Part shown: piece after piece, positions 19,543-34,831 of the stretch
How positions within the stretch are numbered: the stretch's first letter is position 1
Layout of the letters: the number at the start of each line of letters is the position of its first letter
Assembly: GCA_035688895.1 (NCBI GenBank)
Contig: DASSML010000169.1
Location: 1-38,677 of the forward strand
Source: Gemmatimonadales bacterium
GTDB lineage: Bacteria > Gemmatimonadota > Gemmatimonadetes > Gemmatimonadales > GWC2-71-9
DNA length: 38,677 nucleotides
Reading direction: 5' to 3'
Position numbers and translations under genes: made by a program
Notes under the pieces: generated by a model
Database searches by the model: none
Seen by the model: only the letters and a program-made list of their open reading frames with translations
Told to the model about the DNA's origin: nothing

Positions 19543-20500
19543 CGTCTTCGTCGAGGCCGCCGCGCGACTGCACTTCGGAGTACTCGATCTCCGGGGCAGT
19601 CTGGGGCGGCGATTCGGCGGGCTCGGCGCCGCCATTCCGTCCCCATCGCTGCTGCTCGAGGCGGCCCCCGCTTCGGCGGTGAGCGCGACGGGGCCCGACG
19701 CCGAGCGGGTAGACGAGTTCGCCCGGCGATTCCTGGCGCACCATGGCCTGAGCGGGGGTGCCCGCCTCACGCTCCACCGAGCCATCCCGCCGCACAGCGG
19801 TCTCGGGTCGGGGACCCAGCTGGGGCTGTCGGTCGCGCGGGCACTGGCCGAGCTGCACGGGCTCCCGATCGACGCTCCGACCCTGGCCACGGCAGTATCC
19901 CGAGGCCGCAGGTCGGCTATCGGGACCTGGTGCTTCGCCTATGGCGGGTTCATCGTCGAGGGGGGGCACCGTCCTCAGAAGGGGACAGTCGCGCCGTTAT
20001 TGGGACGCTACGAGGTCCCGGAGAGCTGGCGCTCCGTGGTCGCGGTGCCGCCCGGCGAGCCCGGATTGAGCGGCGAGGCCGAATCTGCCGCCTTCGAGCA
20101 GCTTCCCGCTCCTCCCGAGCGCGACCCCGAGCGGGTGGCCCACTTGGTGCTCATGCAGTTGCTACCGTCCCTGGTCGAGGGAGACCTGGCCGGATTCGGG
20201 GCGGCACTAACGGCGATTCAGCGACTTACCGGCGCGTGGTTCGCACCCTCGCAGGGCGGGATCTTCGCCCCGGGCCTGGGGCCCGAGTTGATCGCACGAA
20301 TGGCGGAGTGGGGCGCGGCCGGCGTGGGCCAGAGCTCGTGGGGGCCTGCGGTCTATGGGCTGGTCGATGGCATCGATCAGAGCCGGGCGCTGGCCGAGCG
20401 CGTCCGCGCGTCGCTCGGGGGGCGAGGGCAGGTTTTCGAGGGGGGATTCGCCCGGCACGGGGCCCGTGTCGGGTGGGGTGGACCCCCCACCCAACCCTGA
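19526..20500 (+). CDS. mptG: Beta-ribofuranosylaminobenzene 5'-phosphate (beta-RFAP) synthase, GHMP-kinase fold
   Basis: RLHFGVLDL.G..GRRFGGLG near the N-terminus and HSGLGSGTQLGL (GHMP motif) are typical of MptG. 324 aa. Confidence 0.8.
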   Translation: MSPANSVFVEAAARLHFGVLDLRGSLGRRFGGLGAAIPSPSLLLEAAPASAVSATGPDAERVDEFARRFLAHHGLSGGARLTLHRAIPPHSGLGSGTQLGLSVARALAELHGLPIDAPTLATAVSRGRRSAIGTWCFAYGGFIVEGGHRPQKGTVAPLLGRYEVPESWRSVVAVPPGEPGLSGEAESAAFEQLPAPPERDPERVAHLVLMQLLPSLVEGDLAGFGAALTAIQRLTGAWFAPSQGGIFAPGLGPELIARMAEWGAAGVGQSSWGPAVYGLVDGIDQSRALAERVRASLGGRGQVFEGGFARHGARVGWGGPPTQP

Positions 20501-20529
20501 TTGACAGTTCAATTTTGGGGCTGTATACT
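20501..20529 (+). promoter_or_regulatory. Near-consensus sigma70-type promoter TTGACA-N17-TATACT
   Basis: TTGACA at 20501-20506, an exact 17-nt spacer, and TATACT at 20524-20529. It begins on the base after the mptG stop codon. The expected TSS is near 20535-20537. Confidence 0.6.
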
Positions 20530-20535
20530 GGCCCA

Positions 20536-21179
20536 CCTAAGCCTCCCGTAATCGGCGACTTGGCCGGTTTCCGATTGGGAGCTTCGCGCTCGAAGTAGCA
20601 AGCGCGCTGCGATACCCAGAAGGATCCGGTAGTGGCTCAGGTGGTTTCACCAGGGTGTGAACCGCCTCCCCAGCAGCAGTCCTTTACAGACACACATTGC
20701 TGTGCAGCGGCGTCGCTGAGGGGTTTGATGGGCCTATTCCCGCTGGCCGACACCAATACTTGGCATTCTCCCGATCCGTGGGGCGGTCGCGCGGTCGCAG
20801 TGCGCGCGCGAGCCTGCCGCACGGATATCGTCTGGTGGTGGCGTACCGCCCTGCCGATCGTACACCCGACCGCTGGCTTGCCCACTCCATCCGACGACAT
20901 TTCCCACTTCCATCATCAGGCGCGGCGCCCCCGCACCCAACCGCAGGCTCGCTTGGCGAGCGCGGCTCGGTGCATCCGGCGGGCGGCGGCCCAGCGTAAC
21001 TCCCGTTGGACCGTCGCCGCAATCGCCGAACGCGGGCCCCCGCCCGCCGCCTCACGCTTCACGTAGTCGGCGCCTCCCGGCCCGCGGCACTCGTGGTCCC
21101 GTCGCCGAACCGGCGTCCGCAGCAGGTGGCACCCGAATGCAGTAGAGCAGTAGAACCACCCTTCATCCTGAGGTCAGTT
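20536..21179 (+). other. ~645-nt apparently non-coding leader or candidate structured RNA upstream of xoxF
   Basis: No convincing ORF. Track ORFs here are low-complexity with weaker third-position GC than neighbouring genes. Local hairpins include 20543-20581 (CTCCC/GGGAG plus AATCGG/CCGATT) and 20582-20595 (CTTCG-cgct-CGAAG). No Rfam family was recognised by eye. Confidence 0.35.
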
Positions 21180-23060
21180 ATGAACCGCTTTACCCAGAAG
21201 GTGCTGTCCGGCGGTATTGCGGCGGGGCTGAGCGTAGCCTTCGCCGTGTCCGCCAACGCCCAGGCGGCTCGTACAGGGGCATGGACCCTGGACGGGAAAG
21301 AGGGCGAATGGACGATGACCGGCCGTGACTACAGCCTGCAGCGGTTCAGCCCGCTCAAGCAGATCACGACCTCCAACGTCGCCGAGCTGCGGCCGGTCTG
21401 GTCCTTCTCCACCGGCACGCTCCGGGGCCACGAGGGCAACCCCCTGGTGGTCGGGAACGTGATGTACGTCAACACGTCCTTCCCGAACATCGTGTACGCG
21501 CTCGACCTGTCGAAGCCCGGCGCGCCGCAGATCTGGAAGTACGTGCCCAACCAGTCGCCCGACGCGATTCCAATCGCCTGCTGCGACCTGGTGAACCGCG
21601 GCACCGCGTACAGCCCGAGCGGGAAGGTCTACATCCAGGCCCTCCAGGGCGAGCTGATCGCGCTCGACGCGAAGACCGGCAAGGAGCTGTGGAAGGCCAA
21701 GCACCCGGATAAGTCCAACGCCGGTGTCGAGGCCAACGGCTACAAGCAGGGCGCTACCATGACCAACGCCCCGATCTACATCAAGACCAAGTCGGGCAAG
21801 GAAATGGTCATCGCGGGCATCTCCGGCGGTGAGTTCGGCGTTCGCGGCCGCGTCTCGGCCTTCGACGCCAACAGCGGCGCGCACCTGTGGACCGCCTACA
21901 GCACTGGTCCGGACAGCGAAGTCCTGATCGACGGCGACGCGAATGCCAACTATCCGTCGCACAAGGGCAAGGACCTCGGCGTCAGCACCTGGCAGGGCGA
22001 CGAGTGGAAGCGGGGCGGCGGCACCACCTGGGGCTGGTACTCCTACGACCCCGAGCTCGACCTCTTCTACTACAGCGTCGGCAACCCGGGCACCTGGAAC
22101 CCCGATCAGCGGCCGGGCGACAACAAGTGGTCGATGACCATCTTCGCGCGCCACCCGGACAACGGTCACGCCGCCTGGGCGTACCAGATGACCCCGCACG
22201 ATGAGTGGGACTATGACGGCGTGAACGAGAACGTCCTGTTCGAGAACGGCGGCAAGAAGCTGCTCGCCCACTTCGACCGGAACGGCATCGCCTACACCGT
22301 CGACCGCACCAACGGTAAGGTCCTCGTCGGCAACGCGTACGGCCCGATCAACTGGGCCAAGAACGGCGGCACCGGCACCCCGGTTGAGGGCGTCGTGTCG
22401 ACCGGCGTCCCGGTCAAGGATCCGAAGTACGGCACCTCCTCGAAGAAGAACGGCGAGGGCATCTGCCCGGCCGCCATCGGCTTCAAGGATCAGCAGCCCT
22501 CGGCGTACTCGCCGATCACCGGCCTCTTCTACGTCCCGGCGAACCACATCTGCATGGACTATGAGGGCGTCGAAGTGAAGTACACCGCCGGTCAGCCGTA
22601 CGTCGGCGCGATCGTGCGGATGTTCCCGGGCCCCGGCGGCCACCGTGGCCGGTTCATCGCCTGGGATCCGATGAAGGGTTCCGTGGTGTGGGAGATCAAG
22701 GAGAACCTCGCGGCGTACGGCGGGGCGCTCACCACGGCCGGCGGGCTCGTCTTCTACGGCACCATGGAAGGCTGGCTCAAGGGCGTCGATGCGAAGTCGG
22801 GCAAGGTCCTCTGGCAGTTCAAGACCCCGTCCGGCATCATCGGCAACCCGATGACCTACACCGGTCCCGACGGCAACCAGTACGTCGCCGTCTACTCCGG
22901 CATCGGTGGCTGGGCCGGCATCGGCGTAGCCGCTGGTATCGGCGCTGAAGATCCGACCGCCGGTCTCGGCGCGCTCGGCGCCTTCGGCGACGCGGGCAAC
23001 TTCTCGACCCAGGGCGGCGTCATGACCGTCTTCGGGCTCAAGAACATGGCCATGAAGTAA
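21180..23060 (+). CDS. xoxF: Lanthanide-type PQQ-dependent methanol dehydrogenase (XoxF)
   Basis: ATG 21180 has GAGG 7 nt upstream, and a signal peptide ends ...VSANAQA. The protein aligns by eye along its whole length to MxaF/XoxF: FSTG.LRGHEGNPLVV, vicinal ACCDLVNRG, GGGTTWGWYSYDP, DNKWSMTIFA, ICMDYEG and DPTAGLGALGAF. TPHDEWDYDGVNE carries Asp (22215-22217) where Ca-type MxaF has Ala. No mxaI follows. Confidence 0.92.
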   Translation: MNRFTQKVLSGGIAAGLSVAFAVSANAQAARTGAWTLDGKEGEWTMTGRDYSLQRFSPLKQITTSNVAELRPVWSFSTGTLRGHEGNPLVVGNVMYVNTSFPNIVYALDLSKPGAPQIWKYVPNQSPDAIPIACCDLVNRGTAYSPSGKVYIQALQGELIALDAKTGKELWKAKHPDKSNAGVEANGYKQGATMTNAPIYIKTKSGKEMVIAGISGGEFGVRGRVSAFDANSGAHLWTAYSTGPDSEVLIDGDANANYPSHKGKDLGVSTWQGDEWKRGGGTTWGWYSYDPELDLFYYSVGNPGTWNPDQRPGDNKWSMTIFARHPDNGHAAWAYQMTPHDEWDYDGVNENVLFENGGKKLLAHFDRNGIAYTVDRTNGKVLVGNAYGPINWAKNGGTGTPVEGVVSTGVPVKDPKYGTSSKKNGEGICPAAIGFKDQQPSAYSPITGLFYVPANHICMDYEGVEVKYTAGQPYVGAIVRMFPGPGGHRGRFIAWDPMKGSVVWEIKENLAAYGGALTTAGGLVFYGTMEGWLKGVDAKSGKVLWQFKTPSGIIGNPMTYTGPDGNQYVAVYSGIGGWAGIGVAAGIGAEDPTAGLGALGAFGDAGNFSTQGGVMTVFGLKNMAMK

Positions 23061-23077
23061 GCGCCAACCCGGACGGG

Positions 23078-23097
23078 CCGGAGGGTCTCCCCTCCGG
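23078..23097 (+). terminator. GC-rich hairpin 18 nt after the xoxF stop (CCGGAGGG-tctc-CCCTCCGG)
   Basis: Perfect 8-bp stem with a 4-nt loop, followed by TTCGG. Probably an mRNA-stabilising or partial-termination element rather than a full terminator. Confidence 0.4.
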
Positions 23098-23127
23098 TTC
23101 GGACGGGGCTAGATTACGAAAGAGCAG

Positions 23128-23167
23128 AGCGCCGGGGCGCCGTCAGCTCCGGCGCTTTGCCTTTCTC
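23128..23167 (+). terminator. Second xoxF-xoxJ intercistronic hairpin with T-rich tail (AGCGCCGG-N13-CCGGCGCT TTGCCTTTCT)
   Basis: 8-bp stem (23128-23135 and 23149-23156) followed by a pyrimidine/T-rich run. It lies upstream of the preferred xoxJ start at 23184. Confidence 0.4.
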
Positions 23168-23183
23168 CCAGAAGGGGTTGTCC

Positions 23184-24059
23184 ATGCAGCGCTGTGTCTC
23201 GCTCCGTCGCGTCGCCACCCTCGCCGGACTCGGCCTCGTCGGCTTCGTCCTCCCCGCCCGGGCCCAGCGGCCCGCGCCGCTCGACCCGGAAAAAATTCGG
23301 GTCTGCGCCGATCCGGACAACATGCCCTCCTCCAACGACAAGCTCGAGGGCTACGAGAACAAGCTGGCGACGCTGATCAGCCAGGAGCTCAAGGCCAAGC
23401 TGGAGTACGTCTGGTATCCCACCCGCCGAGGCTACTTCCGGATCCTCAACGGGATGTACTGCGACCTCGCCATGGAGGTCCCCGCCGGGCTCGACATGGC
23501 CGGCGCCACCAAGGCCTACTTCCGCTCCGGCTACGTCTTCGTGACCCGCAAGGGGAGCGGCCTCGACGACATCAACAGTCTGGCCGATCCCCGGCTCAAG
23601 AAGGTCAAGATCGGGGTCAACATCTACACCTCCGACGCCGAGAATTCCCCGCCCGCCATGGCGCTGAGCCACTACGGCGTGGTGGGGAACCTGGTCGGCT
23701 TCAGTACCTTCTTCGATGAGAACAATCGCCCGGAGGACATCGTCAACGCCGTCGCCAAGAAGGACGTCGACCTGGCGATCGCCTGGGGCCCGCTGGCGGG
23801 GTTCTACGCCAAGAGTGCCACCGTCCCGCTGGTCCTGACCGTCCTCCCTGCCAAGGACTCGCTCAGCGACTTCCCCTTCCAGTACAACATCGGGATCGCC
23901 GTGCGCCGAAGCGACAAGGAGTTCAAGGACAGCCTGAACGCGGTGCTCACCCGGCGCCAGTCGGACGTCCAGGCCATTCTGAAGGAGTATGCCGTCCCCC
24001 TGCTGCCCATCGAGCAGGGTCATGGCGGTGAGAAGGGCGAGGCCAAGGCCTCGAGCTGA
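23184..24059 (+). CDS. xoxJ: XoxJ/MoxJ-like periplasmic solute-binding-fold protein
   Basis: Start is taken at ATG 23184 (GAAGGGG upstream), giving a signal peptide ending ...LPARAQ. IRVCADPDNMPSSN and DLAIAWGPLAGFYA resemble the quinoprotein-dehydrogenase-associated family-3 binding proteins. Confidence 0.75.
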   Translation: MQRCVSLRRVATLAGLGLVGFVLPARAQRPAPLDPEKIRVCADPDNMPSSNDKLEGYENKLATLISQELKAKLEYVWYPTRRGYFRILNGMYCDLAMEVPAGLDMAGATKAYFRSGYVFVTRKGSGLDDINSLADPRLKKVKIGVNIYTSDAENSPPAMALSHYGVVGNLVGFSTFFDENNRPEDIVNAVAKKDVDLAIAWGPLAGFYAKSATVPLVLTVLPAKDSLSDFPFQYNIGIAVRRSDKEFKDSLNAVLTRRQSDVQAILKEYAVPLLPIEQGHGGEKGEAKASS

Positions 24060-24171
24060 CCCCCGTCCTGGCGGCACGGCGGTTGCGGAGAACGCCCGGC
24101 AGCGGTATTACAAGTTCAGATCCAGCATCCGAAACCCGTTCCGCCGGCCCCTCCTCCCGAGGGGCCTCGGC

Positions 24172-24651
24172 ATGACTTCCTCATTGTCCCCGAAAGGATC
24201 GTCCGCCAGCATGTGCATGCCGCTTCTCGCCGTTTTCCGCCGAGCGGTCCTGGGGACCGGCATCGTCGTCGGCGTTCTCGCAGTCGCTCCCCGGGTCCAG
24301 GCGCAGGAGCTCCGCGACGCCTATCACCAGGCGCCCCGGGACACCGTGTCTCAGGAAGTGTACGACGGGTGGAAGCAGTTCAACCTCAACTGCGCCCGCT
24401 GCCATGGCGAGGACGTGTTGGGAACCACCATCGCCCCCCACCTGATCCTGTCACTCAAGCCCGACGGTCCGATCAACACCAAGGAGCTGTTCATCCAGAC
24501 GGTGTGCGCGGGACGGCCGACCAAGGGGATGCCGTCGTGGTGTGCCCTCGGCATGGACATGGACAAGATCCAGAGCATCTACGACTACGTGAAGGGCAGA
24601 AGCGACGCGAAGATCGGCCCGGGACGACCGGCGGTCAAACCGACGGGCTGA
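24172..24651 (+). CDS. xoxG: Mono-haem c-type cytochrome (XoxG-like electron acceptor)
   Basis: Single CARCHG haem-binding motif, a GMPSW candidate Met ligand, and a signal peptide ending ...APRVQAQ. It sits after xoxJ. The start is ATG 24172 or 24211. Confidence 0.75.
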   Translation: MTSSLSPKGSSASMCMPLLAVFRRAVLGTGIVVGVLAVAPRVQAQELRDAYHQAPRDTVSQEVYDGWKQFNLNCARCHGEDVLGTTIAPHLILSLKPDGPINTKELFIQTVCAGRPTKGMPSWCALGMDMDKIQSIYDYVKGRSDAKIGPGRPAVKPTG

Positions 24652-24672
24652 ACCCGGCGAACGTATGAGTGC

Positions 24673-24710
24673 AGGCCCCCGGCGGACGCGGGGGCCTTTT
24701 CGTTTGGTTT
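24673..24710 (+). terminator. Rho-independent terminator after xoxG
   Basis: 9-bp stem AGGCCCCCG / CGGGGGCCT (24673-24681 and 24689-24697) with a 7-nt loop, followed by TTTTCGTTTGGTTT. Confidence 0.75.
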
Positions 24711-24833
24711 CCCCATCCGGGTGCCCCCCGACCGACGCGCATCTCTTCGGTAGCACCCGCCCCAGGGCGGGGATATGTTCCCGGTATGGGCCCGCCTTCC
24801 GGGCGTGGTCCACCACCTTAGGCAGGGAGACAG

Positions 24834-25691
24834 ATGCCCGCCTTCTTGAGCCCCGGTCGCAGCCTCGCGATCCTCGCGCTGCTGGTCCTGCCGTCGGGGG
24901 CGTGGGCCAGCCCAACCGCCGACGCGCTCCGCACCGCGGCCCCCATCGACACGCCGACCGTCCGCCTCGACCTGGCCACGCTCAAGCAGCGGCTGGAGAG
25001 CGGCGGCAGCGACGGGCCCAACCTGGCTGGGGTAGACCTGAGCGGAATGGACCTCGCGGGGCTCGACTTCCGCCGGGCCAATCTGACCGGGTCCCGGCTC
25101 GCGGGCGCCAAGCTCCCGGGCGCGAACCTCTTCAGCTGCGACCTCACCGACGCCGACCTCTCGGGCGCCGATCTCACCAAGGCCAACATGGACGGGACCG
25201 TCCTTCGCCGGGCGGTGCTCAAACAGGCCAATCTCGCCGGGGCCAGCCTGTTCGCCACCATCATCGAGGCGGCCGACCTGAGCGGTGCGAACCTCTCCGG
25301 CACCCGGATCATCGGCTACCTGCGGAGCGCCAAGCTCCCCGGGGCCAGCCTGCAGAACAGCAACGCCGGAGCCGACCCCGGGAATCAGTCTATGGGGGTC
25401 ATGCGCGCCACCTTCGTCGGCGCCGACCTGAAGGGCGCCGACCTCAGCGGCGCCAACCTCTACAAGGCCGACTTCTCCCACGCCGACCTGACCGGGGCCA
25501 AGCTGCGGCGCGCCAACCTGGAGAACGCCGACCTGCTGCAGACCGACTTCACTCGGGCCGATCTGACCGGCGCCAAGCTGGCCAAGGCCGACATCGACGG
25601 GGCCATCTTCACCGGCGCGGTCGGCGTGTCTCAGATCCAGGGCCTGGATCAGGCCCGCAACCGTGACAAGGCAACCTTCGATGCCCACTGA
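24834..25691 (+). CDS. Secreted pentapeptide-repeat protein
   Basis: Signal peptide MPAFLSPGRSLAILALLVLPSGAWA. About 200 aa of A(D/N)LXX repeats follow (ADLSGADLTKANMDG, ANLSGTRI, ADLKGADLSGANLYKADFSHADLTGAKLRRANLENADLLQTDFTRADLTGAKLAKADIDGAIF). Confidence 0.85.
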   Translation: MPAFLSPGRSLAILALLVLPSGAWASPTADALRTAAPIDTPTVRLDLATLKQRLESGGSDGPNLAGVDLSGMDLAGLDFRRANLTGSRLAGAKLPGANLFSCDLTDADLSGADLTKANMDGTVLRRAVLKQANLAGASLFATIIEAADLSGANLSGTRIIGYLRSAKLPGASLQNSNAGADPGNQSMGVMRATFVGADLKGADLSGANLYKADFSHADLTGAKLRRANLENADLLQTDFTRADLTGAKLAKADIDGAIFTGAVGVSQIQGLDQARNRDKATFDAH

Positions 25692-26766
25692 TGCCCGAGG
25701 CGGGAGCGCACTGCTCCTGCTTGCCCTGCTTGCCTGCGGCGGCAGCGAAAAGCCTCCCGCAACCCAGGCCGCTGCCGACACGACCCCGCCGGCCGCCTCC
25801 ACTACTCCGGCCCTGATGGCCTACGTCCCCAACGAAGGCTCGGGCGAGGTCACGATCATCGACGTCGCGCTCGACAGCGCGGTCGGCACGATCCCGGTCG
25901 GTACCCGTCCGCGCGGCTCACGGGTGAGTCCGGACGGCACCAAGCTCTACGTAGCCTTGAGCGGCTCACCGCGCTGCCCGCCGACCATGCCCGACGAGGA
26001 GTGCGCGAAGCTCCGGGCCGACAAGAGCAAGGATGGCATCGGCGAGATCGATCTGGCCACACGGAAGGTCGTCCGTGTGCTCCCCGGCGGGTCCGACCCT
26101 GAGAACTTCGACATCAGCCAGGACGGCACCAAGCTCTTCATCTCCAACGAGGACGCGGGCGAAGCCACCTTCGTGGATATCGCCAGCGGCAAGGTGGAGA
26201 AGACGATCAAGGTGGGAGAGGAGCCCGAGGGCGTGAAGCTGGCGCCGGACGGTCACGAGGTGTGGGTCACCGCGGAAACCGCGCATGACGTGTCCGTGCT
26301 CGACACCCGGAGCGGCAAGGTGCTGGCCAAGATCGAGACCGGCAAGCGCCCCCGCAGCCTGGTCTTCAATCAAAACGGCACCCGGGCCTACGTGAGCTCG
26401 GAGGTCGGCGGCACGGTGGACATCATGGACGCCAAGACCTATAAGGTCCTCAAGACCTTGAAGATGCCGGAGGGAGCCAAGCCGATGGGCGTGGCCCTCT
26501 CGCCGGATGGCACGCGGCTCTACGTCGCCAACGGGCGGGCAGGTACCGTCTCGCTGGTGGATCTCGCCACCGACTCGGTGGTCACGAGCACCAAGGTGGG
26601 AACCCGGCCTTGGGGCATCGCGCTCACCCCGGATGGCAAGAAACTCTACGCCGCCAACGGTCCCTCGAACAACGTGAGCGTGCTCGACGCCGAGAACATG
26701 CAGGTGACGAAGACCGTGCCCGCGGGTGAGCTCCCCTGGGGCGTCACCCTCGGCAAGGCCCCGTGA
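25681..26766 (+). CDS. YVTN-family seven-bladed beta-propeller lipoprotein (PQQ-dependent-catabolism-associated type)
   Basis: Start is taken at ATG 25681, giving MPTDARGGSALLLLALLAC with a lipobox LLAC. The motif P.G...SPDG.KLYV.N....V.V.D recurs about 7 times. The track ORF starts at GTG 25663. Confidence 0.8.
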   Translation: MPTDARGGSALLLLALLACGGSEKPPATQAAADTTPPAASTTPALMAYVPNEGSGEVTIIDVALDSAVGTIPVGTRPRGSRVSPDGTKLYVALSGSPRCPPTMPDEECAKLRADKSKDGIGEIDLATRKVVRVLPGGSDPENFDISQDGTKLFISNEDAGEATFVDIASGKVEKTIKVGEEPEGVKLAPDGHEVWVTAETAHDVSVLDTRSGKVLAKIETGKRPRSLVFNQNGTRAYVSSEVGGTVDIMDAKTYKVLKTLKMPEGAKPMGVALSPDGTRLYVANGRAGTVSLVDLATDSVVTSTKVGTRPWGIALTPDGKKLYAANGPSNNVSVLDAENMQVTKTVPAGELPWGVTLGKAP

Positions 26767-27245
26767 TACGACCGACGGTCGCGTTCCTGCTCGCCGCCGC
26801 GGCCGGCGCCGGCAGCGCGGCGGGACCGAGCGGGTTCCGCTTCGAGCCCTACGCCCAGGTGGAGCTCCGCAAGCTCTGGAGCGACAGCCGGGAGAGCGGC
26901 CAGGAGCGGGTCGCCTGCCTGGCGGGGGTGATGGACGACGACTCGGTGCGGGTGACCGGCATGCGTGCCCTCGATACCTGGGCCGACTCCCTGATGATCT
27001 CGGCCAGCCAATCGCTCGAGGAGTGCCATCCGCCGGAGTGGGTCGGCACCGTCCATACCCACATCGCGCTCCGGGGCGGCCGGCCCTACAGCACCTTCTC
27101 GGGAGCCGACCGGGGCGTGAATACCCTCTGGTGGCGCCGGTGGAGCGTAGACGGCACTTTCTGCGTGCTCTTCACCGAGCAGGACGCCTACTGCGAGGTC
27201 GACGGCCCGCACGGACTCCGCATCTTCCCCCATGCCAGCTACTGA
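26763..27245 (+). CDS. Secreted JAB/MPN (JAMM-motif)-like protein, paralogue 1
   Basis: GTG 26763 overlaps the propeller stop (GTGA), and a signal-like N-terminus is present (VAFLLAAAAGAGSA). QERVACLAG (Glu), GTVHTH (HxH) and FSGAD (SxxD) resemble the E...HxH...SxxD JAMM signature, e.g. EACGVLAG / HSHT...PSRTD of Mec-type enzymes. The HxH-to-S spacer is longer than the usual 7 residues. Confidence 0.5.
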   Translation: MIRPTVAFLLAAAAGAGSAAGPSGFRFEPYAQVELRKLWSDSRESGQERVACLAGVMDDDSVRVTGMRALDTWADSLMISASQSLEECHPPEWVGTVHTHIALRGGRPYSTFSGADRGVNTLWWRRWSVDGTFCVLFTEQDAYCEVDGPHGLRIFPHASY

Positions 27246-27762
27246 GGGTCGGCGCCGCACCCTCGTCACCCTGGTCGCCTCGCTGCTCCTCGCCGCCAAC
27301 GCGTCGGCCCAGGACAGCCTCCCCCACCGGGCCACTCCCACCTTCCGCTTTGCCCCCGAAGCCGGTCGCACCCTCCGGAGCCTCTGGGAGGCCAGCGTCG
27401 CCGCCCAGCAGGAGCGGGTCGCCTGCCTGGCCGCCGAGGTCCGGAACGATTCCGTCTTCGTACTCCGCGTGCTCCCGCTGGAGACCTCCGGCGCCGACTC
27501 GATGACCATCGCATCCGACGAGTCGATCGAGCGGTGCGGACCGCCCTCCTGGTCCGGAACGGTCCACAGCCACGTGGCGGAGTACAGCGATGGACTCCCG
27601 TCCACCACCTTCTCGGCTCAGGATCGCGGCGTGATGCGTCGGTGGTACGAGCGCTGGCGGACCGACGGCGTCTTCTGCGTGGTATACAGTCGGCGGGATG
27701 CCCACTGCGAAGCCGACGGCGTGGTCGGAGGGATCCGCTCCCAGCCCAGCGTCACCCGCTGA
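27232..27762 (+). CDS. Secreted JAB/MPN (JAMM-motif)-like protein, paralogue 2
   Basis: Clear Sec signal (LVTLVASLLLAANASAQ). It has the same motif set as paralogue 1 (QERVACLAA, GTVHSH, FSAQD, DGVFCVV, AHCEADG), with about 40% identity by manual alignment. It overlaps the paralogue 1 stop by 14 nt. Confidence 0.5.
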   Translation: MPATEGRRRTLVTLVASLLLAANASAQDSLPHRATPTFRFAPEAGRTLRSLWEASVAAQQERVACLAAEVRNDSVFVLRVLPLETSGADSMTIASDESIERCGPPSWSGTVHSHVAEYSDGLPSTTFSAQDRGVMRRWYERWRTDGVFCVVYSRRDAHCEADGVVGGIRSQPSVTR

Positions 27763-27770
27763 GCCGGAGC

Positions 27771-27792
27771 CGGCCGCTCAGCTGAGCGGCCG
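27771..27792. terminator. Perfect 22-nt palindrome between convergent operons (CGGCCGCTCAG/CTGAGCGGCCG)
   Basis: It lies 9 nt after the JAB-like paralogue 2 stop and covers the DoxX-like stop codon. It can form the same hairpin on both strands. There is no U-tract. Confidence 0.4.
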
Positions 27793-28320
27793 TCGGGTCA
27801 GCGGCGACTTGGGTCGGTTCTCGGCGAGGCGGCCATCGATGCCCCAGGTCCGCCCGGCGCGAGCAAAGAAGAAGGTGATCATCAGCAGCGTGAGCAGCAA
27901 GTGGAAGCCCTGCTGCCCCGGCGACATCCACTGCGTGGCCAGGCCGTAGTTGATCACCAGCACGAGCCCCACGATGGACGCGACACCGGTCAGGAGGCCG
28001 AGCGTGAGTCCCAGGCCGGCCACCGTCTCGCCCCACGCCGTCAGATGCGCGAACAGACTGGCGTGCGTCAGCACGGTGTTCTCGAGGAAGTGCTTGTAGA
28101 AGAGGATCGGGTTGTCCGAGGCCTGCTTCGTGACGATCGCCGGCATCACGTTGATCCACCGGTCCGATACCGCCGGAAACGGGAGGAAGCCACCCAGCAG
28201 TGCGATGCTCATCTTGGTCACCAGGGACTTCACGAAATAGAGTCCCACGCCGATTCGGATGATCGCGAGCCATTGAGGGGCATGTTCGATGCTGACGGGC
28301 GAGCGGGCACGATAGGCCAT
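27778..28320 (-). CDS. DoxX/DoxD-like integral membrane protein
   Basis: Start is taken at the ATG giving MAYRARSPVSIEHAPQWLAIIRIGVGLYF, 28 nt after the oligopeptidase stop. Four hydrophobic segments are present, and the WGETVAGLGLTLGLLT pattern is typical of DoxX/DoxD proteins. Confidence 0.55.
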   Translation of the reverse strand: MAYRARSPVSIEHAPQWLAIIRIGVGLYFVKSLVTKMSIALLGGFLPFPAVSDRWINVMPAIVTKQASDNPILFYKHFLENTVLTHASLFAHLTAWGETVAGLGLTLGLLTGVASIVGLVLVINYGLATQWMSPGQQGFHLLLTLLMITFFFARAGRTWGIDGRLAENRPKSPLTRRPLS

Positions 28321-28348
28321 TTGGCGGAGCTCCCGGTGTTCGGTTGCC

Positions 28349-30400
28349 TTAAACCTCCACCCCCAACTGCCAAAACACAAACGTCCAGGTATCGGTGAGC
28401 TCGTCCAGCACCTTGTTGAGCGGCTTGCCCGCACCGTGGCCCGCCCGGGCCTCCAGGCGGAGCAGCACCGGCCGGTCCGACGATGTGGCCGCCTGCAGCC
28501 GGGCCGTCATCTTGCGGGCGTGCATCGGATCGACCCGGGTGTCGCTCTCGGCGGTCGCGAGCAGCACCGCCGGGTAGGCCACGCCGTCGCGCACATGCTG
28601 ATAGGGTGAGTAGGCGCGCAGCCAGCGGAACTGCTCCGGGTCCTCGGCCGATCCGTACTCCGGGATCCACAGCCGGGCGATGAGAAACCGATGGTACCGC
28701 AGCATGTCGAGCAGCGGCACCTGAATCACCACCGCGCCGAACAGCTCGGGGCGCTGGGTCAGCACCGCCCCCATCAGCAGCCCGCCGTTGCTCCCGCCCG
28801 CCGCCGCGAGGCGCTCCGGCCTGGTATACCCTTCCCGGATCAGCCACTCCGCGGCCGCGATGAAGTCGTCGAAGCTGTTCTGCTTGTGTCCCAGCATTCC
28901 GCCCTGGTGCCAGGCCTCGCCATACTCGCCGCCGCCCCGAATGTTTGGAATGGCGACGACGCCGCCTTGCTCCAGCCACAAGAGCAGCGAGCGGGAGAAC
29001 GCCGGCGTCATGCTGATGTTGAACCCGCCGTATCCGCTCAGGTAGACCGGATTGGCCCCGTTGCGCGACAGCCCCGTCCGGTGGATGACGAACATCGTCA
29101 CCTCGGTCCCGTCCTTCGAGCGATAAGCGACCTGCCGCACCTCGTAGCGGCTCGGATCCAGGTCGGCGGCCACCCGCCGCCAGAGCGTGCTGGTGCCGGC
29201 CGGCAGCTCCAGCCGATAGACCGTCGGCGGCACGGTGTACGAAGTGAAGCCGTAAAACACCTCGTCGCCGTCCCACTCGCCGGTGAGACCGAAGAGCGAG
29301 CCGATCGTGGGAAGGGCCACGTCCCGGACCTCGTTTCCGTCGAGGTCCGCCAGACGGAGCCGCGACGAGGCTCGCTCCAGATAGCTCAGCGCCAGCGCCG
29401 AGCCGGCGACCTTGAATCCATCGAGCACGGCGTCGGCGCTCGGCGGGACGATCTCTCGCCAACCCGCGCGCGCCGGCCGCTCGGGGTCCACCAGGTAGAG
29501 TCGGTAGGTCGGCGCGTCGAGATTGGTCCGGAGATACAGCCGGCCGCGCACGACCTCGCCGTCGAAGGTGGCCGGCAGGTCCTTCGCGACGGGCACCGGC
29601 GGCGTACCAGCCACACGGTCCTGCAGGTAGAGATCGGTCTGGTCGAACGTGCGCGCGACGCCGATCACCAGCCATCGCCCGTCGGGACTCAGCCCGACCC
29701 CCGGCCAGTGCTCCTTTTCCTCCGGGCGGAAGACCAGCGAATCGGCCTCGGGATCGGTGCGGAGCCGGTGAAAGAACACCGAGCGGTGATAGTGCTCCTC
29801 GCCCTCGGGCACCTCGCCGGGCGCAGGATAGCGGGTGTAGTAGAAGCCGCTGCCGTCGGGAAGCCACGCCAGATCCGCCGCTCGCGTCCGCGGGATCCGA
29901 TCCGGCAGCGGCGCGCCCGAGCTTACCTCCAGCAGGTGCAGCACGCTCTGCTCGCTGCCGTTTTCCGAGAGCCCGTATGCGAGGAGGCGCCCGTCGTCGC
30001 TGGGGTAGAACCAGTCGAGCGCGGTGGTGCCCTGGGCATCGAGGGAGTTCGGGTCGATCAGGACCCGGTCCTCGCCCTCGCGGCCCTCCCGCACATAGAG
30101 CACCGGTTGATTCTGCCGGCCGTCGCGCCGCTGGTAGAAGTAACGTCCGGCCACCGGTTCCGGCGTGCTCAGGGCGCCGATCGAGAGGAGCTCATCGAGG
30201 CGGCCGCGGAGGCGGGCCCGCCCCGGCACCGCCGCGAGCAGCGACTCGGTCAGCGCGTTCTGGCTCGCGGTCCATGCCTGGGTGCGCGGGTCGTCCCCCT
30301 GCTCCAGCCAGCGGTAGGGATCGGGAATCGACTCGCCATGGAGGACTTCGACCTCCTCACCGGCGGAGGTCGGCGGATAGGGCGGGCGGGACGACATCAC
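28349..30400 (-). CDS. Prolyl oligopeptidase (S9A family serine peptidase)
   Basis: 683 aa with an N-terminal beta-propeller region (DPYRWLE). The catalytic domain has GGSNGGLL (nucleophile Ser), later Asp/His regions (ESDTRVDP, GHGAGK). Confidence 0.9.
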   Translation of the reverse strand: MMSSRPPYPPTSAGEEVEVLHGESIPDPYRWLEQGDDPRTQAWTASQNALTESLLAAVPGRARLRGRLDELLSIGALSTPEPVAGRYFYQRRDGRQNQPVLYVREGREGEDRVLIDPNSLDAQGTTALDWFYPSDDGRLLAYGLSENGSEQSVLHLLEVSSGAPLPDRIPRTRAADLAWLPDGSGFYYTRYPAPGEVPEGEEHYHRSVFFHRLRTDPEADSLVFRPEEKEHWPGVGLSPDGRWLVIGVARTFDQTDLYLQDRVAGTPPVPVAKDLPATFDGEVVRGRLYLRTNLDAPTYRLYLVDPERPARAGWREIVPPSADAVLDGFKVAGSALALSYLERASSRLRLADLDGNEVRDVALPTIGSLFGLTGEWDGDEVFYGFTSYTVPPTVYRLELPAGTSTLWRRVAADLDPSRYEVRQVAYRSKDGTEVTMFVIHRTGLSRNGANPVYLSGYGGFNISMTPAFSRSLLLWLEQGGVVAIPNIRGGGEYGEAWHQGGMLGHKQNSFDDFIAAAEWLIREGYTRPERLAAAGGSNGGLLMGAVLTQRPELFGAVVIQVPLLDMLRYHRFLIARLWIPEYGSAEDPEQFRWLRAYSPYQHVRDGVAYPAVLLATAESDTRVDPMHARKMTARLQAATSSDRPVLLRLEARAGHGAGKPLNKVLDELTDTWTFVFWQLGVEV

Positions 30401-30415
30401 CGGAGCGGACGCGGC

Positions 30416-31498
30416 TCAGTCACCGAGGCTGATGCCCAGCTCCCGGGCGGTCGCGATGATGTCGCTGTCCAGCGGGATGTTCTTGGCGCGCCCCACCACC
30501 TGGTCGAGAGGCACGCGGGTGATGTCCGCGCCGTTGAGCCCCACCATGGTACCGAACGCGCGGTCGGCGATCGCCCGCACGGCGGCGCCGCCGAAGCGCA
30601 GCGCCAGCAGGCGGTCGTAGGTCGTGGGCGACCCTCCCCGCTGCAGGTGCCCCAGGACCAGGGTCCGGGTCTCCTTCCCGGTGCGATGCTCGATGGCGCG
30701 GGCCACCTTGCTGCCGATGCCACCCAGCCGGTCCACCGTGCCGACGCCCCGCCGCTCGACCAGCTCGATCGCGCCGTCGCGCGGCCGGGCGCCTTCCGCG
30801 ACCACCACGATGCTGAATCGGCGCCCCGCCGCTTCGCGGGTGAGGATCTTCTGGCACACCCTTTCGATGTCGAACGGAATCTCGGGCAGCAGGATCACGT
30901 CGGCGCTGCCCGACAGTCCGCTGTACAGCGCGATCCAGCCGGCGTAGCGCCCCATCAGCTCCACCACCATCACCCTGTCGTGGCTCTCGGCGGTGCTGTG
31001 CACCTTGTCGAGCGCCTCGGTGGCGGTGCTCACGGCACTGTCGAAGCCGAAGCTCCGCTGGGTGCCGGCGACGTCGTTGTCGATCGTCTTGGGCACGCAG
31101 ACCACCGGCAGGCCCTTGCACCAGAGCTGGTGGGAGATCTGCAGGCTGCCGTCGCCGCCGATCGACACCAGCGCGTCGAAGCCGCTGGCGTGAAACGCCG
31201 CGACCAGGTCGTCCGAGCGATCGACCTCGTATTCCTTGCCCTCGGGGTCCCGCATGACGTAGCGGAACGGATTGCCTCGATTGGTGGTCCCGAGGATGGT
31301 GCCGCCGAGATGGGTGATGCCGCGGACCGAGTCGGGACCGAGTCGAACCACCCCGTTGAAGGAGAGCAGCCCCTCGTAACCACGCTGGATTCCGTACGCC
31401 TGCCACCCCCGGGACTGCGCCGAGAGCACCACCGCCCGGATCACGGCATTGAGACCCGGGGCGTCCCCGCCGCCGGTGGAGAGGGCAATTCGCATCAC
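30416..31498 (-). CDS. pfk: 6-phosphofructokinase (phosphoryl-donor specificity unresolved)
   Basis: MRIALSTGGGDAPGLNAVIR, SIGGDGSL, PKTIDNDV and MGRYAGW. Gly in GGDG is ATP-type, but Lys in PKTIDND is seen in PPi-type and actinobacterial-type enzymes. The GTG start overlaps the stop of the upstream selenoprotein gene. Confidence 0.9.
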   Translation of the reverse strand: MMRIALSTGGGDAPGLNAVIRAVVLSAQSRGWQAYGIQRGYEGLLSFNGVVRLGPDSVRGITHLGGTILGTTNRGNPFRYVMRDPEGKEYEVDRSDDLVAAFHASGFDALVSIGGDGSLQISHQLWCKGLPVVCVPKTIDNDVAGTQRSFGFDSAVSTATEALDKVHSTAESHDRVMVVELMGRYAGWIALYSGLSGSADVILLPEIPFDIERVCQKILTREAAGRRFSIVVVAEGARPRDGAIELVERRGVGTVDRLGGIGSKVARAIEHRTGKETRTLVLGHLQRGGSPTTYDRLLALRFGGAAVRAIADRAFGTMVGLNGADITRVPLDQVVGRAKNIPLDSDIIATARELGISLGD

Positions 31499-31852: not shown

Positions 31853-33532
31853 ATGCGAACCTACCGAGATGGTACCGGCGGCCGGGGGCTGGCGCTTCTG
31901 GCCTTGGTGGTCTGCGTCGCGTCTCCGCTGGTCGCTCAGGAACGTCGCTACCTTGTCGAGCTCGGCGCGGCGGGAACGTATCAGTCCTTCGACAGCTTAG
32001 CCGGGCTCAAGAGCGCCCCGGGCTGGCTGCTACGAGGGGGTGTCTGGCTCCCGCTCAACTTCTCGGTAGAGGGGGAGTACACCTCCGCCACGCCCAAGGC
32101 CAAGGCTGACGACGTTGGGACCTCCTACCACGCTCTGTTTCTCTCATTGCTCTACAACATCCCAGTTGGACGGAGCAACTGGCTCTATCTCAAGGCCGGT
32201 GGCGGGTCCAACAGCTACGCAGGCAATAGGTACGATGAATGCCCACCACCGGGCGGGCCGACCCCCGGCGCGAACACCGCATGCGGTAGAGCGGGGGCCC
32301 TGGCCGGCGGTGCAGGCTTTCGGGTCGGAATTACCCCAATCCTCTTTGCACGGGGCGAGGCGTTGATTTCCGGCTACAAGTCAACAGCCAAGGGCTGCGA
32401 CACCGCGTGCCCATCGGACAAGACCCTCACCAACTTCGGCCTTAACGTCGGCCTGAGCGTCATGCTCGGCAGCAAGCCGATCCCCGACTCCGACAACGAC
32501 GGCATCCTCGACAACAAGGATCGCTGCCCCGACACCCCCGCCGGTGCCCAGGTGGACGGCCAGGGCTGCAGCGGCGACTCGGACACCGACGGCGTCCCCG
32601 ACGGTGTAGATCGGTGCGCCGGCACGCCGCTCGGCGCCACGGTAGATGCAAAAGGTTGCACTCGCGACTCCGACGGGGACAACATCCCCGACGGCATCGA
32701 TCGCTGCCCGGACACTCCCGCCGGCGTCCTGGTCGACCCCAACGGCTGCGCCAAGGACAGCGACGGCGACTCCATCCCGGACGGCCTCGACCGCTGCTCC
32801 GAGACCCCACGCGGCGCCACCGTGGACGCCCTGGGCTGCCCCGGCGACGAGGATGGGGACGGTGTCCTCGACGGCCTCGACCGGTGCCCCCGGACCACGC
32901 CCGGCGCCACGGTGAATCCCTCGGGCTGCGCCGCCGGCCAGGCGCCGGCACGGAACGCCCCGACGGGACAACCTGCTCCTACCGGACAGGCGAACCCGCC
33001 GGCGCAAGCGACCCCGTCGGGAGCGCCGGTGGCACCGGTGCCTCCACCGGGTGGGATACGATCGCCCCAACCGGTTCCCAAGCCTGCGGTGAAGGACTCC
33101 GTGAATCTCAAGCCCGGCGCGGCGGCAGCAGCAGTGCCCGGTGCAGCGGCCGCCGCGGGCAAGCCCAGAGCGAGCATGATCGTGGCGGGAGTCATTCCCG
33201 GTGTGGTGTTCGATGAGGGTTCAGCCCGGCTGCGTCCCGAGTCCTACGTGCCGCTCGACTCGATCGCCGACATCCTGCAGGCCGACACCACGATTCGAGT
33301 CGAGATCGGAGCGTACACCGACACCAGCACGCCGACGGCGGACGCCCAGCGTCTCACCAGCCTCCAGGCCGACGCCGTGCGCACCTATCTGGTGACCAAG
33401 GGTGTAAAGTTCCAGCAGGTGGTTCCCCAGGGCTACGGATCGACCGTTCCCATCACGCCCGATACCAGCCCCCGAGGACGTGCCGCCAATCGTCGAGTCG
33501 AGATCAGACCAGTGACAGGCACGGGCCCCTGA
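31853..33532 (+). CDS. OmpA-family outer-membrane protein with thrombospondin type-3 (Ca-binding) repeats
   Basis: Signal peptide (LALLALVVCVASPLVAQ) and an N-terminal beta-barrel-like region. Five DxDxDG..D..DRCP repeats follow, then a Pro/Ala-rich linker. The C-terminal OmpA_C domain has GAYTDTS, ADAVRTYLV and ANRRVEI. Confidence 0.85.
   Translation: MRTYRDGTGGRGLALLALVVCVASPLVAQERRYLVELGAAGTYQSFDSLAGLKSAPGWLLRGGVWLPLNFSVEGEYTSATPKAKADDVGTSYHALFLSLLYNIPVGRSNWLYLKAGGGSNSYAGNRYDECPPPGGPTPGANTACGRAGALAGGAGFRVGITPILFARGEALISGYKSTAKGCDTACPSDKTLTNFGLNVGLSVMLGSKPIPDSDNDGILDNKDRCPDTPAGAQVDGQGCSGDSDTDGVPDGVDRCAGTPLGATVDAKGCTRDSDGDNIPDGIDRCPDTPAGVLVDPNGCAKDSDGDSIPDGLDRCSETPRGATVDALGCPGDEDGDGVLDGLDRCPRTTPGATVNPSGCAAGQAPARNAPTGQPAPTGQANPPAQATPSGAPVAPVPPPGGIRSPQPVPKPAVKDSVNLKPGAAAAAVPGAAAAAGKPRASMIVAGVIPGVVFDEGSARLRPESYVPLDSIADILQADTTIRVEIGAYTDTSTPTADAQRLTSLQADAVRTYLVTKGVKFQQVVPQGYGSTVPITPDTSPRGRAANRRVEIRPVTGTGP
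32486..32935 (+). repeat. Five tandem 90-nt (30-aa) TSP3 coding repeats
   Basis: DSDNDGILDNKDRCPDTPAGAQVDGQGCSG, DSDTDGVPDGVDRCAGTPLGATVDAKGCTR, DSDGDNIPDGIDRCPDTPAGVLVDPNGCAK, DSDGDSIPDGLDRCSETPRGATVDALGCPG and DEDGDGVLDGLDRCPRTTPGATVNPSGCAA. Confidence 0.9.
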
Positions 33533-33537
33533 TTTGC

Positions 33538-33587
33538 AGAGTTGCCGGAATGTGGGCGTCGCATCGCACCCGCGTTCCGGCAACTCT
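33538..33587 (+). terminator. Long hairpin after the ompA-like gene (13-bp perfect stem AGAGTTGCCGGAA / TTCCGGCAACTCT, 24-nt loop)
   Basis: Arms lie at 33538-33550 and 33575-33587, starting 6 nt after the stop. There is no U-tract, so the function (terminator or processing/stability element) is uncertain. Confidence 0.4.
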
Positions 33588-33601
33588 CACTTCAGGGCCA
33601 C

Positions 33602-34831
33602 ATGTCTCGGTCGCTCGCCTGCGGCGTTCTGTTCGTTCTTCTGCACATTGCACCGCCGAACATTGCACCATTGGCCGCTCAGCAACCGGAGCGGTGGGGC
33701 GACGAGCTTCCCCCCGCGCCGGAGCTCTCCGCCATGCCGGTGGCACCGGTGCTCGACTCGGTCCGCTGGCCGGCCCCGCCGTTGAACCGACCGCCGGCGC
33801 AGGTTCGTGCGGTGTACGTGAATGCCTGGGCCTTCGGCGGCCGCCGCTTCCGCGAGCTCGTCGCCCTGGCCGACCGCACCGAGATCAACGCCTTCGTGAT
33901 CGACGTGAAGGACGACACCGGCTACCTGACCTACCGGTCCACCGTCCCGACCGCGGTCCAGATCGGCGCCAACCAACAGCTCCGTGCCCGGGACACCGAG
34001 GCGCGCCTCCGGCTCCTCCGCGAGCACGGCATTCATCCGATCGCCCGGATCGTCGTGGCCAAGGATCCGCTGCTGGCCTCGCGCAAGCCGGAGTGGTCGG
34101 TTCGCCACGTGAACGGCGGCCTCTGGCGCGATCGGCTGGACTTCGCCTGGGTCGATGCCTTCAACGACTCGGTCTGGATCTACGCCTCCCAGCTTGCCGC
34201 CGAGGCGGTTCGCATGGGCTTCGCCGAGGTGCAGTACGACTACGTGCGCTTTCCCGACGAGCCCGAGAGCCGCCTGGCCAACGCCGTCTTCGCCTCCCGC
34301 CGCGACGGCGAGACCAAGCGGCAGGGTGTCGCCCGCAATCTCAAGCTCCTCGGTGACCGTACCCGCCCGCTCGGTGTCCCGTTCACCATCGACGTCTTTG
34401 GTCTGACCACCAGCGCCCGCACCGACATGGGGATCGGGCAGTACTGGGAGGATCTCGTCACCACCGCCGACGTGGTGCTGCCGATGGTCTACCCCAGCCA
34501 CTACGTCCATGGGGTGTACAACCTGAAGCGCCCGAACGACGAGCCCTACCAGCTCATCCGCCGTGCGATGCAGGACGCCTTGCGTCGCTCCGCCCCTCTC
34601 GGCAAGACCGCCGAGGTCCGGCCCTACCTGCAAGCCTTTACCCTGGGGGCCCCCCGGTACACTCCGGCGCTGGTGCGTGAGCAGATCCGCGCCGCCGAGG
34701 AGCTGGGGCTCAAGTCCTGGGTGCTCTGGAATCCCCGGAGCGCGTATGATCAGGGCATCTTCCGACCCGAGCCCGCCGCGGTGGGAATGACCCCGGAGGA
34801 CACCAGGCGTCCTGATTCGGGGACGGAATGA
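33602..34831 (+). CDS. Putative secreted glycoside hydrolase-like TIM-barrel protein (DUF4015/GHL type)
   Basis: Start is taken at ATG 33602, giving a signal-like MSRSLACGVLFVLLHIA. RAVYVNAWAFGG..F.ELV.LADRTEINAFVIDVKDDTGYLTY and EVQYDYVRFPDE fit the DUF4015 pattern as recalled. Confidence 0.55.
   Translation: MSRSLACGVLFVLLHIAPPNIAPLAAQQPERWGDELPPAPELSAMPVAPVLDSVRWPAPPLNRPPAQVRAVYVNAWAFGGRRFRELVALADRTEINAFVIDVKDDTGYLTYRSTVPTAVQIGANQQLRARDTEARLRLLREHGIHPIARIVVAKDPLLASRKPEWSVRHVNGGLWRDRLDFAWVDAFNDSVWIYASQLAAEAVRMGFAEVQYDYVRFPDEPESRLANAVFASRRDGETKRQGVARNLKLLGDRTRPLGVPFTIDVFGLTTSARTDMGIGQYWEDLVTTADVVLPMVYPSHYVHGVYNLKRPNDEPYQLIRRAMQDALRRSAPLGKTAEVRPYLQAFTLGAPRYTPALVREQIRAAEELGLKSWVLWNPRSAYDQGIFRPEPAAVGMTPEDTRRPDSGTE

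Follow-up and report, generated by a model that had tools for sequence, protein, structure and literature searches.

The closest described relatives of the locus reported here are pyrroloquinoline quinone (PQQ) alcohol dehydrogenase clusters of Pseudomonas. In these bacteria PedD (PP_2673/PA1981), an exported pentapeptide-repeat protein, adjoins a PQQ alcohol dehydrogenase; it is conserved in both methylotrophs and non-methylotrophs, responds to alcohols and lanthanum, and has no known function (PMC12997753, PMC7188995). A second companion, PedA2 (PP_2669), represents family TIGR03866 and is part of the PedA1A2BC lanthanide-uptake system (PMC12997753). We describe a related locus on the 38,677-nucleotide (nt) contig DASSML010000169.1 of a soil Gemmatimonadales bacterium (metagenome-assembled genome, GenBank assembly GCA_035688895.1, positions 1 to 38,677 of the forward strand; G+C content approximately 70%), the whole of which is referred to below as the window. 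Downstream of xoxF, xoxJ and a cytochrome c gene, the window carries a block of four accessory genes (24834-27762) encoding a pentapeptide-repeat protein (PRP), a YVTN beta-propeller and two tandem JAB-like proteins, JABa and JABb. Two of these families are known companions of PQQ alcohol dehydrogenases; what is new here is an apparently exported branch of the JAB/MPN superfamily, coupled with a DoxX-family protein. The features of the locus are as follows.

21180..23060, + strand: xoxF, lanthanide-type PQQ methanol dehydrogenase, 626 aa (TIGR03075, PDB relatives)
23184..24059, + strand: periplasmic binding protein (MoxJ-like) in the xoxJ position (TIGR03871)
24172..24651, + strand: c-type cytochrome in the xoxG position, with a CARCH haem motif (translation, weak NCBIfam matches)
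24673..24707, + strand: terminator-like hairpin with a T-rich tail, between the cytochrome gene and the accessory block
24834..25691, + strand: predicted exported pentapeptide-repeat protein, PedD-like, 285 aa (PF00805)
25681..26766 (alternative start 25663), + strand: YVTN beta-propeller, predicted lipoprotein, PedA2/LutB-like, approximately 361 aa (TIGR03866, TIGR02276)
26763..27245, + strand: JABa, predicted exported JAB/MPN+ (JAMM-like) protein, 160 aa (paralogy with JABb, motif)
27232..27762, + strand: JABb, predicted exported JAB/MPN+ (JAMM-like) protein, 176 aa (AlphaFold model, Foldseek, motif)
27771..27792, no strand: perfect 22-nt palindrome, between the convergent JABb and DoxD genes
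27778..28320, - strand: DoxD/DoxX-family membrane protein, approximately 180 aa (Pfam PF04173, PF07681)

An earlier, sequence-only reading of the window had proposed that the four co-directional genes form a tightly packed unit behind xoxF, xoxJ and a cytochrome c gene. Both the position of the block and its overlaps of 11, 4 and 14 nt were reproduced, with the propeller ATG at 25681. XoxF, JABa and JABb are residue-for-residue identical to HET7423143.1, HET7423148.1 and HET7423149.1 in NCBI, the last two of which are annotated as "hypothetical protein"; because these identical proteins exist, the gene models of the window agree with those of PGAP. All four accessory proteins are kept at 50-93% identity across 80 species-level genomes, and the block is therefore not a product of chance.

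In the window, as in the Pseudomonas ped cluster, genes for a pentapeptide protein and a YVTN propeller adjoin those for a PQQ alcohol dehydrogenase, its c-type cytochrome and a MoxJ-like protein; the lut cluster of M. extorquens is a similar case to ped. Unlike the ped cluster, the window has no adjacent two-component regulators, and its propeller scores below the curated TIGR03866 cut-off (251.3 vs 287.3 bits). The absence of ATP-binding cassette (ABC) components, already remarked upon in the sequence-only reading, was borne out: no ABC_tran or permease domain was found in those open reading frames (ORFs), chosen from among the larger ones, that were scanned against Pfam. The published ped gene table contains neither a JAB-like nor a DoxD gene (PMC12997753).

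A second point of comparison is provided by the xoxF3-type clusters of Acidobacteria and Gemmatimonadetes from weathered granite (PMC10875860). These come in part from the same phylum as the window and share with it XoxF, XoxJ, XoxG, a propeller ("YncE"/PQQ-associated) and conserved hypothetical proteins. They differ in that NRAMP and TonB receptors are highlighted and in that the hypothetical proteins are approximately 110-130 aa in length, compared to 160-176 aa for the JAB-like proteins. Pentapeptide proteins and DoxX are unmentioned in that paper, which was not searched for "JAB" or "MPN".

The third comparison is to the JAMM/MPN+ metalloproteases, including Rpn11, CSN5, archaeal JAMM1, the Caldiarchaeum Rpn11 homologue and the bacterial proteins Cap3 (CBASS) and BubCD, with which the tandem proteins share a fold and an invariant E…HxH…SxxD motif. 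At the sequence level JABa and JABb are 46% identical to one another, and neither matches any family in Pfam, NCBIfam, PADLOC or PHROGs. A PDB search with a sequence profile of the family gave no matches, and tblastn of the tandem proteins against plasmids gave nothing usable. The family is small: an exhaustive profile search of 1.84 billion representative proteins recovered only 131 clusters at 50% identity, and a word-indexed search recovered 1117 JAB-like proteins, of which the named ones are all "hypothetical" and the names given are those of Gemmatimonadales.

The relationship to JAB proteins becomes visible in structure. An AlphaFold model of JABb, built on a diverse alignment of 49 members (22-63% identical to JABb), has a predicted local distance difference test (pLDDT) score of 83.8, with values above 90 in the core; it replaces an earlier, poor model (pLDDT 56) built on a shallow alignment of 16 sequences. 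In a Foldseek search of the PDB, the top 50 matches are all JAB/MPN proteins (E 8e-6 to 2e-4, template modelling score approximately 0.5, probability 1.00), among them Rpn11, CSN5/CSN6, Rpn8, the Caldiarchaeum Rpn11 homologue, PfJAMM1, Cap3, BubCD and BRCC36. The top matches to the same model in a viral structure library are also MPN/JAB proteins, and the order of secondary-structure elements in the model fits the JAB fold.

The residues expected of a JAMM-type active site are present. Across the 49 members, JABb positions E61, C65, C102, H112, H114, D131, C149 and C159 are invariant and S128 is nearly so (conserved in at least 90%); the corresponding JABa residues are E48, C52, C88, H98, H100, S113, D116, C134 and C144. 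Of 274 copies examined, 273 retain all nine hallmark residues, namely the E…HxH…SxxD motif and the four cysteines: 106/106 JABb genes, 105/106 JABa genes and 62/62 single-copy genes. Neither JABa nor JABb is a degenerate partner. Fold and motif together uphold the "JAB-like" call of the sequence-only reading, and the tandem pair, a predicted exported JAB/MPN+ branch, is the new element of the block.

This degree of conservation bears on whether the JAB proteins are enzymes at all. They could instead be periplasmic metal-binding or scaffold proteins, acting as a metal chaperone or assembly platform for XoxF, XoxJ or the propeller: MPN domains are often scaffolds that pair as dimers, JABa and JABb are tandem paralogues, and the Foldseek matches include Rpn8 and CSN6. 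However, scaffold-type MPN proteins typically lose the E/HxH/SxxD residues, which are kept here in both paralogues, and His-rich sites are poor lanthanide ligands. We consider a non-enzymatic role very unlikely.

The tandem proteins depart from the characterised JAMM enzymes, which are known from the cytoplasm or nucleus, in carrying a predicted signal peptide and four invariant cysteines, features that would imply a periplasmic location. Nearly all of the 49 members begin with a hydrophobic, signal-like segment. The sequence-only reading had considered all four accessory proteins to be exported, and by inspection each does have a signal-peptide-like N-terminus: that of the pentapeptide protein appears to end in AWA/SP, and that of the propeller appears to carry an A-L-L-A-C lipobox. 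A full-text literature search for periplasmic, signal-peptide-bearing JAB domain proteins returned only a general analysis of the JAB and deaminase folds. A defence-system assignment (Cap3- or Bub-like) was considered for the pair and rejected, as no ubiquitin-like, E1/E2 or CD-NTase partner occurs in the neighbourhoods read and there is no PADLOC match.

JAB genes were then placed in their genomic context. The genome scan used a closer alignment and hence recovered JABb-type genes only; a metagenome scan (80 loci) widened the sample. Neighbour counts given here and below were taken among loci with enough flanking sequence, and "XoxG" labels from tblastn mark the position of the cytochrome only. 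The JAB gene is present in 80 species-level genomes, all but one of which are labelled Gemmatimonadales or Gemmatimonadota, and nearly all of these have the order GHMP-xoxF-xoxJ-cytochrome-PRP-propeller-JABa-JABb/DoxD-S9-PFK, in which GHMP, S9 and PFK denote genes for a GHMP kinase, an S9 peptidase and phosphofructokinase. One locus with this order (L062; DASXTD010000476.1) is labelled Chloroflexota, which is probably a binning error. In four proteins (P0168, P0208, P0220 and P0240) the C-terminus of the propeller and a JAB domain lie in a single ORF; they may represent genuine fusions, or else artefacts of read-through or frameshift where the two genes overlap by 4 nt.

Over approximately 170 Gemmatimonadota loci the JAB gene stays close to xoxF in at least six gene orders, and xoxF lies within 7.5 kb of it in 27 of 29 loci. 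Apart from the standard order, and the same order with a single JAB gene, we observed xoxFJ(G)-PRP-/DoxD/-JAB-/GHMP, which lacks the propeller; xoxFJG-propeller-JAB-/PFK, which lacks both PRP and DoxD; xoxFJ-cytochrome-binding protein-propeller-/DoxX/-JAB, beside a second PQQ dehydrogenase and TonB receptors; and JAB-xoxF-xoxJ. The JAB gene therefore remains with the xox/one-carbon (C1) island through rearrangements. Synteny with xoxF, which the sequence-only reading had named as the test of its proposal, holds in the 80 Gemmatimonadales genomes and is rearranged elsewhere in the phylum. The idea of a fixed four-gene unit did not survive the same comparison: there are relatives without the pentapeptide gene, relatives without the propeller and relatives with one JAB gene.

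Further DoxD-JAB pairs were seen in other company. In L087/L088 (376-8852) the pair lies beside a TonB-dependent receptor, an ABC importer and a DUF3280 protein, and in L084 (10520-18141) it lies near two TonB-dependent receptors, a SoxE-like protein and a second PQQ dehydrogenase. A JAB-like member that has a signal peptide and retains the motif is encoded on a phage-like contig (L091 9001-9600, L092 3838-4437), together with DNA polymerase B, a clamp loader, a Gp23-like protein and a macro-domain protein.

The steadiest neighbours of the JAB gene are the propeller and the DoxD/DoxX membrane protein. A propeller gene is found no more than 1.6 kb away in 89 of 100 loci, and DoxD lies within 1 kb in 88 of 100 (74 downstream and convergent, 14 upstream and divergent), remaining adjacent to JAB when it switches sides; the pentapeptide gene is within 3 kb in 76 of 83. 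The sequence-only reading had set the facing genes aside as a convergent operon beyond the end of the module. That dismissal is not tenable, as the DoxD/DoxX gene is found near JAB about as often as the propeller is.

The DoxD product matches PF04173 (30.2 bits, cut-off 22.7) and PF07681 (23.9 bits, cut-off 23.6), that is, DoxD and DoxX, and in Pfam it does not match MauE. The comparison to MauE is relevant because of methylamine dehydrogenase clusters, in which MauE and MauD are both needed for maturation of the periplasmic quinoprotein. MauE is a DoxX-related membrane protein and MauD is its periplasmic partner. In both cases a small multi-pass membrane protein is found with an exported, cysteine-bearing protein in a quinoprotein dehydrogenase cluster, but the partner in the window has a JAB fold rather than a thioredoxin fold and DoxD has no CXC motif. 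Disulfide formation by MauE requires that motif (bioRxiv 10.64898/2026.03.05.709764). The DoxD sequence contains no cysteine from its likely start at M39, and DoxD was thus ruled out as a MauE/DsbB-like enzyme that would form disulfides between the four JAB cysteines.

The remaining two proteins of the block belong to families already associated with PQQ alcohol dehydrogenases, and both assignments of the sequence-only reading (pentapeptide repeats and a YVTN propeller) were confirmed. The pentapeptide-repeat protein matches PF00805 with an E value of 1.7e-50. The sequence-only reading had presented it as a new addition to such loci; this is not so, since proteins of the PedD kind are known beside PQQ alcohol dehydrogenases in Pseudomonas and on an Azospirillum brasilense plasmid, where a pentapeptide gene is located directly 3' of a PQQ dehydrogenase of the methanol/ethanol family. 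A plasmid-wide tblastn search gave 2360 generic repeat matches, which swamped any signal of orthology with PedD. The propeller matches TIGR02276 (YVTN) repeats in six stretches, and TIGR03866 is by far its best family (E 1.1e-74) despite the score noted above; its gene is located 2.6 kb downstream of xoxF, an arrangement that is conserved. The pentapeptide protein of the PedD kind and the propeller of the PedA2/TIGR03866 kind are both known companions of PQQ alcohol dehydrogenases.

The presence of a PedA2/LutB-like propeller raises the question of lanthanide acquisition. According to this explanation, the JAB proteins and the propeller would act together: hydrolysis of an amide bond in a periplasmic lanthanophore would hand the metal to XoxF, replacing the ABC-importer route. 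The propeller family belongs to an uptake system and stands in the window without ABC partners in the ORFs scanned, DoxD-JAB pairs occur next to a TonB-dependent receptor and an ABC importer (L087/88) or near two TonB-dependent receptors (L084), and the pocket of JAB proteins lends itself to long, extended substrates (PMC3239186). Against this, the argument is inferential throughout, the window showed no genes for making a chelator, cleavage of a small-molecule chelator is known for no JAB enzyme, and the loci of the form xoxFJ(G)-PRP-/DoxD/-JAB have JAB without the propeller. We regard acquisition by this route as quite unlikely.

Taken as a whole, the evidence suggests that the block is probably a composite, lineage-specific extension of the Gemmatimonadota xoxF-xoxJ-cytochrome c cluster, in which JAB hydrolases serve the XoxF system. 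The sequence-only reading had seen a distinct periplasmic module. The part of that proposal which envisaged one new four-part unit falls away, as two of the genes encode known companions, while the tandem JAB-like pair is indeed new.

Several observations weigh against this assignment. With respect to the protein family, the substrates of characterised JAB peptidases are the tails of ubiquitin-like proteins (PMC3239186), and no ubiquitin-like, E1/E2-like or CD-NTase gene was found among the annotated genes within approximately 9 kb in L001, L002, L083-L090 and L176. Membership of the JAB superfamily is weak at the sequence level: the window proteins have no significant match to the JAB hidden Markov models PF01398 and PF14464, and of the 49 family members only one matches a curated JAB model (Prok-JAB, E 0.005). 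The spacer between HxH and SxxD is 12-13 residues in length, longer than the seven residues of canonical JAMM proteins.

With respect to gene order, the xox-linked JAB members are confined to one phylum, and in the window clade the flanking genes (DoxD, S9 peptidase, PFK and GHMP kinase) show the same degree of synteny as the block, so that vertical inheritance explains much of the conservation. In one arrangement (L083, L087/88: DUF3280-DoxD/-JAB-/pabC/pabA/pabB…Fae) there is no xoxF within 9 kb, although the JAB gene remains part of a C1 island that includes Fae and pab genes. Unrelated genes of cytoplasmic type have also been inserted in some relatives: a CMAS-type S-adenosylmethionine-dependent methyltransferase gene is found at two different positions of the block in different relatives, namely between the cytochrome and PRP genes in L007 (2542-4050) and between the propeller and JABa genes in L052 (6029-7486), and a Peptidase_M3 gene that is apparently frameshifted in the assembly is found between JABb and DoxD in L013 (8428-10354). 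In many relatives there is a gap of approximately 2 kb between JABb and DoxD, at the site that Peptidase_M3 occupies in L013.

These points are the basis for the view that the neighbourhood is inherited without shared function, JAB-DoxD being a general envelope or periplasmic proteolysis module that merely adjoins the C1 island. The most distant JAB-like members, which have no xox linkage, are in keeping with this. In a distant clade with a lipoprotein-type N-terminus, the JAB-like gene is found 3' of a PDZ-Peptidase_M48 gene in two distinct loci, with a 4-nt overlap in L093 (1770-3460) and a 127-nt gap in L175 (2466-4143), and another distant member is the one on the phage-like contig. The terminator-like hairpin that separates the block from xoxFJG points in the same direction. 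On the other side, JAB keeps its place in the xox cluster or C1 island across six or more gene orders, including one in which it is upstream of xoxF, it is retained in the cluster even where the S9/PFK flank is gone, and xoxF is close by in nearly all loci with enough flank. We therefore find an inherited neighbourhood without shared function to be fairly unlikely. An ATP-grasp gene is also present near the JAB-like gene in L093 and L175, at a position and orientation that differ between the two loci.

In the preferred reading, in which the block extends the XoxF system, JABa and JABb are most likely exported metal-dependent hydrolases that serve this system. They would be exported through Sec, stabilised by two structural disulfides (C149-C159 and C65-C102 in JABb numbering) and bind zinc; the secondary structure of the JABb model places C149 and C159 on neighbouring strands of a hairpin. 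In the periplasm they may hydrolyse an extended peptide or amide substrate on behalf of the XoxF system. A protein of that system in need of clipping or turnover is one candidate substrate, and a proteolytic function in the envelope would agree with the PDZ-M48 context of the distant relatives. The alternative candidate is an amide-linked lanthanide chelator, which is suggested because the PedA2-type propeller lacks ABC partners here and because L084 and L087 have TonB receptor and ABC importer genes nearby. Tandem JABa/JABb paralogues recall MPN-MPN dimers, and in the window clade the two catalytically intact-looking proteins would probably act as one; DoxD, for its part, may hold them at the membrane.

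A stronger form of this proposal is that the tandem proteins are the first periplasmic JAMM-type hydrolases, docked to a DoxX-family protein and carrying out a dedicated step of lanthanide-dependent methanol oxidation, this step being either the clipping or quality control of a XoxF-system protein or the cleavage of a chelator that delivers metal without an ABC importer. As a joint claim this is unlikely.

The family bears on lanthanide supply to XoxF and its periplasmic maturation, and on the roles, at best partly known, of PedD-type and PedA2/LutB-type companions, in a phylum that is abundant in soil, mostly uncultured and commonly equipped with xoxF. A JAMM-like protein that is predicted to be exported and disulfide-bearing, and that is tied to XoxF, would be unexpected to a specialist and would extend the JAB/MPN superfamily into the bacterial periplasm and outside of ubiquitin-like systems. 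It is also a concrete and cheap target: a conserved hydrolase-like family of 160-176 residues with clear candidate catalytic residues and a candidate membrane partner. Should the link to xoxF prove to be one of inherited gene order only, a defined new JAB family would still be available for annotation.

Two DNA elements described in the sequence-only reading were confirmed in the window. The hairpin following the cytochrome gene has a 9-bp stem with 8 G-C pairs (24673-24697) and is followed by the T-rich tail TTTCGTTTGG. By a lenient criterion, 50 of 87 related loci have a terminator-like hairpin in the gap that separates the cytochrome gene from the pentapeptide gene, compared to 67 of 250 coding control segments; it is enriched in this gap, but not universal. 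The palindrome CGGCCGCTCAGCTGAGCGGCCG (27771-27792) is perfect over its 22 nt and covers the DoxD stop codon. It was rejected as a conserved element, as only 7 of 92 related loci have an inverted repeat whose arms reach 8 nt or more. A scan of positions 20000-29000 against Rfam identified no known RNA element. The ORF at 24213-24668 (+), which overlies the cytochrome gene off-frame, is probably not a gene, and the ORF at 20632-21066 (+) upstream of xoxF was rejected as one because of its non-coding-looking, Ala/Arg/Pro-rich composition and lack of a family match.

The core of the cluster is of the expected type. The dehydrogenase matches TIGR03075 with 631.8 bits (cut-off 480), its best solved relatives are the lanthanide-dependent XoxF structures 4mae (E 2e-204) and 6oc5, and its alignment shows the D-Y-D signature with the extra aspartate (WDYDGVNE); judged by these signatures, it is a lanthanide-type XoxF. 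The protein in the xoxJ position matches the quinoprotein-dehydrogenase-associated substrate-binding family TIGR03871 (256.8 bits, cut-off 212) and falls below the cut-off of the MoxJ model TIGR03870 (115.6 bits). The best matches of the cytochrome are weak, with both the methanol-metabolism-related cytochrome family TIGR03874 (E 2.6e-8) and PedF (E 2.7e-6) under their cut-offs; its orthologue in L001 carries PF13442.

Upstream of xoxF, positions 1-20500 hold a near-complete C1 pathway island of the tetrahydromethanopterin/methanofuran type. Its genes encode a FhcA-like amidohydrolase, FTR, MCH, an EthD-domain protein, a RimK-type ligase, a CitG-like protein, PTPS, an amino-acid-kinase-like protein, 4-HFC-P synthase, a DUF6513/pterin-binding protein, a PabB-like protein, a DUF447 protein and a GHMP kinase, and a large HAMP-GAF-GGDEF-EAL signalling protein is encoded within the island at 10272-13349 (-). 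Downstream of the block are genes for a prolyl oligopeptidase (S9) and PFK, which are syntenic with it in most relatives. Beyond these are genes for an OmpA/thrombospondin-repeat outer-membrane protein, a DUF4015 glycosyl-hydrolase-like protein and a DsbH/DUF255 thioredoxin-like protein; gene spans in this downstream region include 28349-31498 (-), 31853-34831 (+) and 35514-37586 (+).

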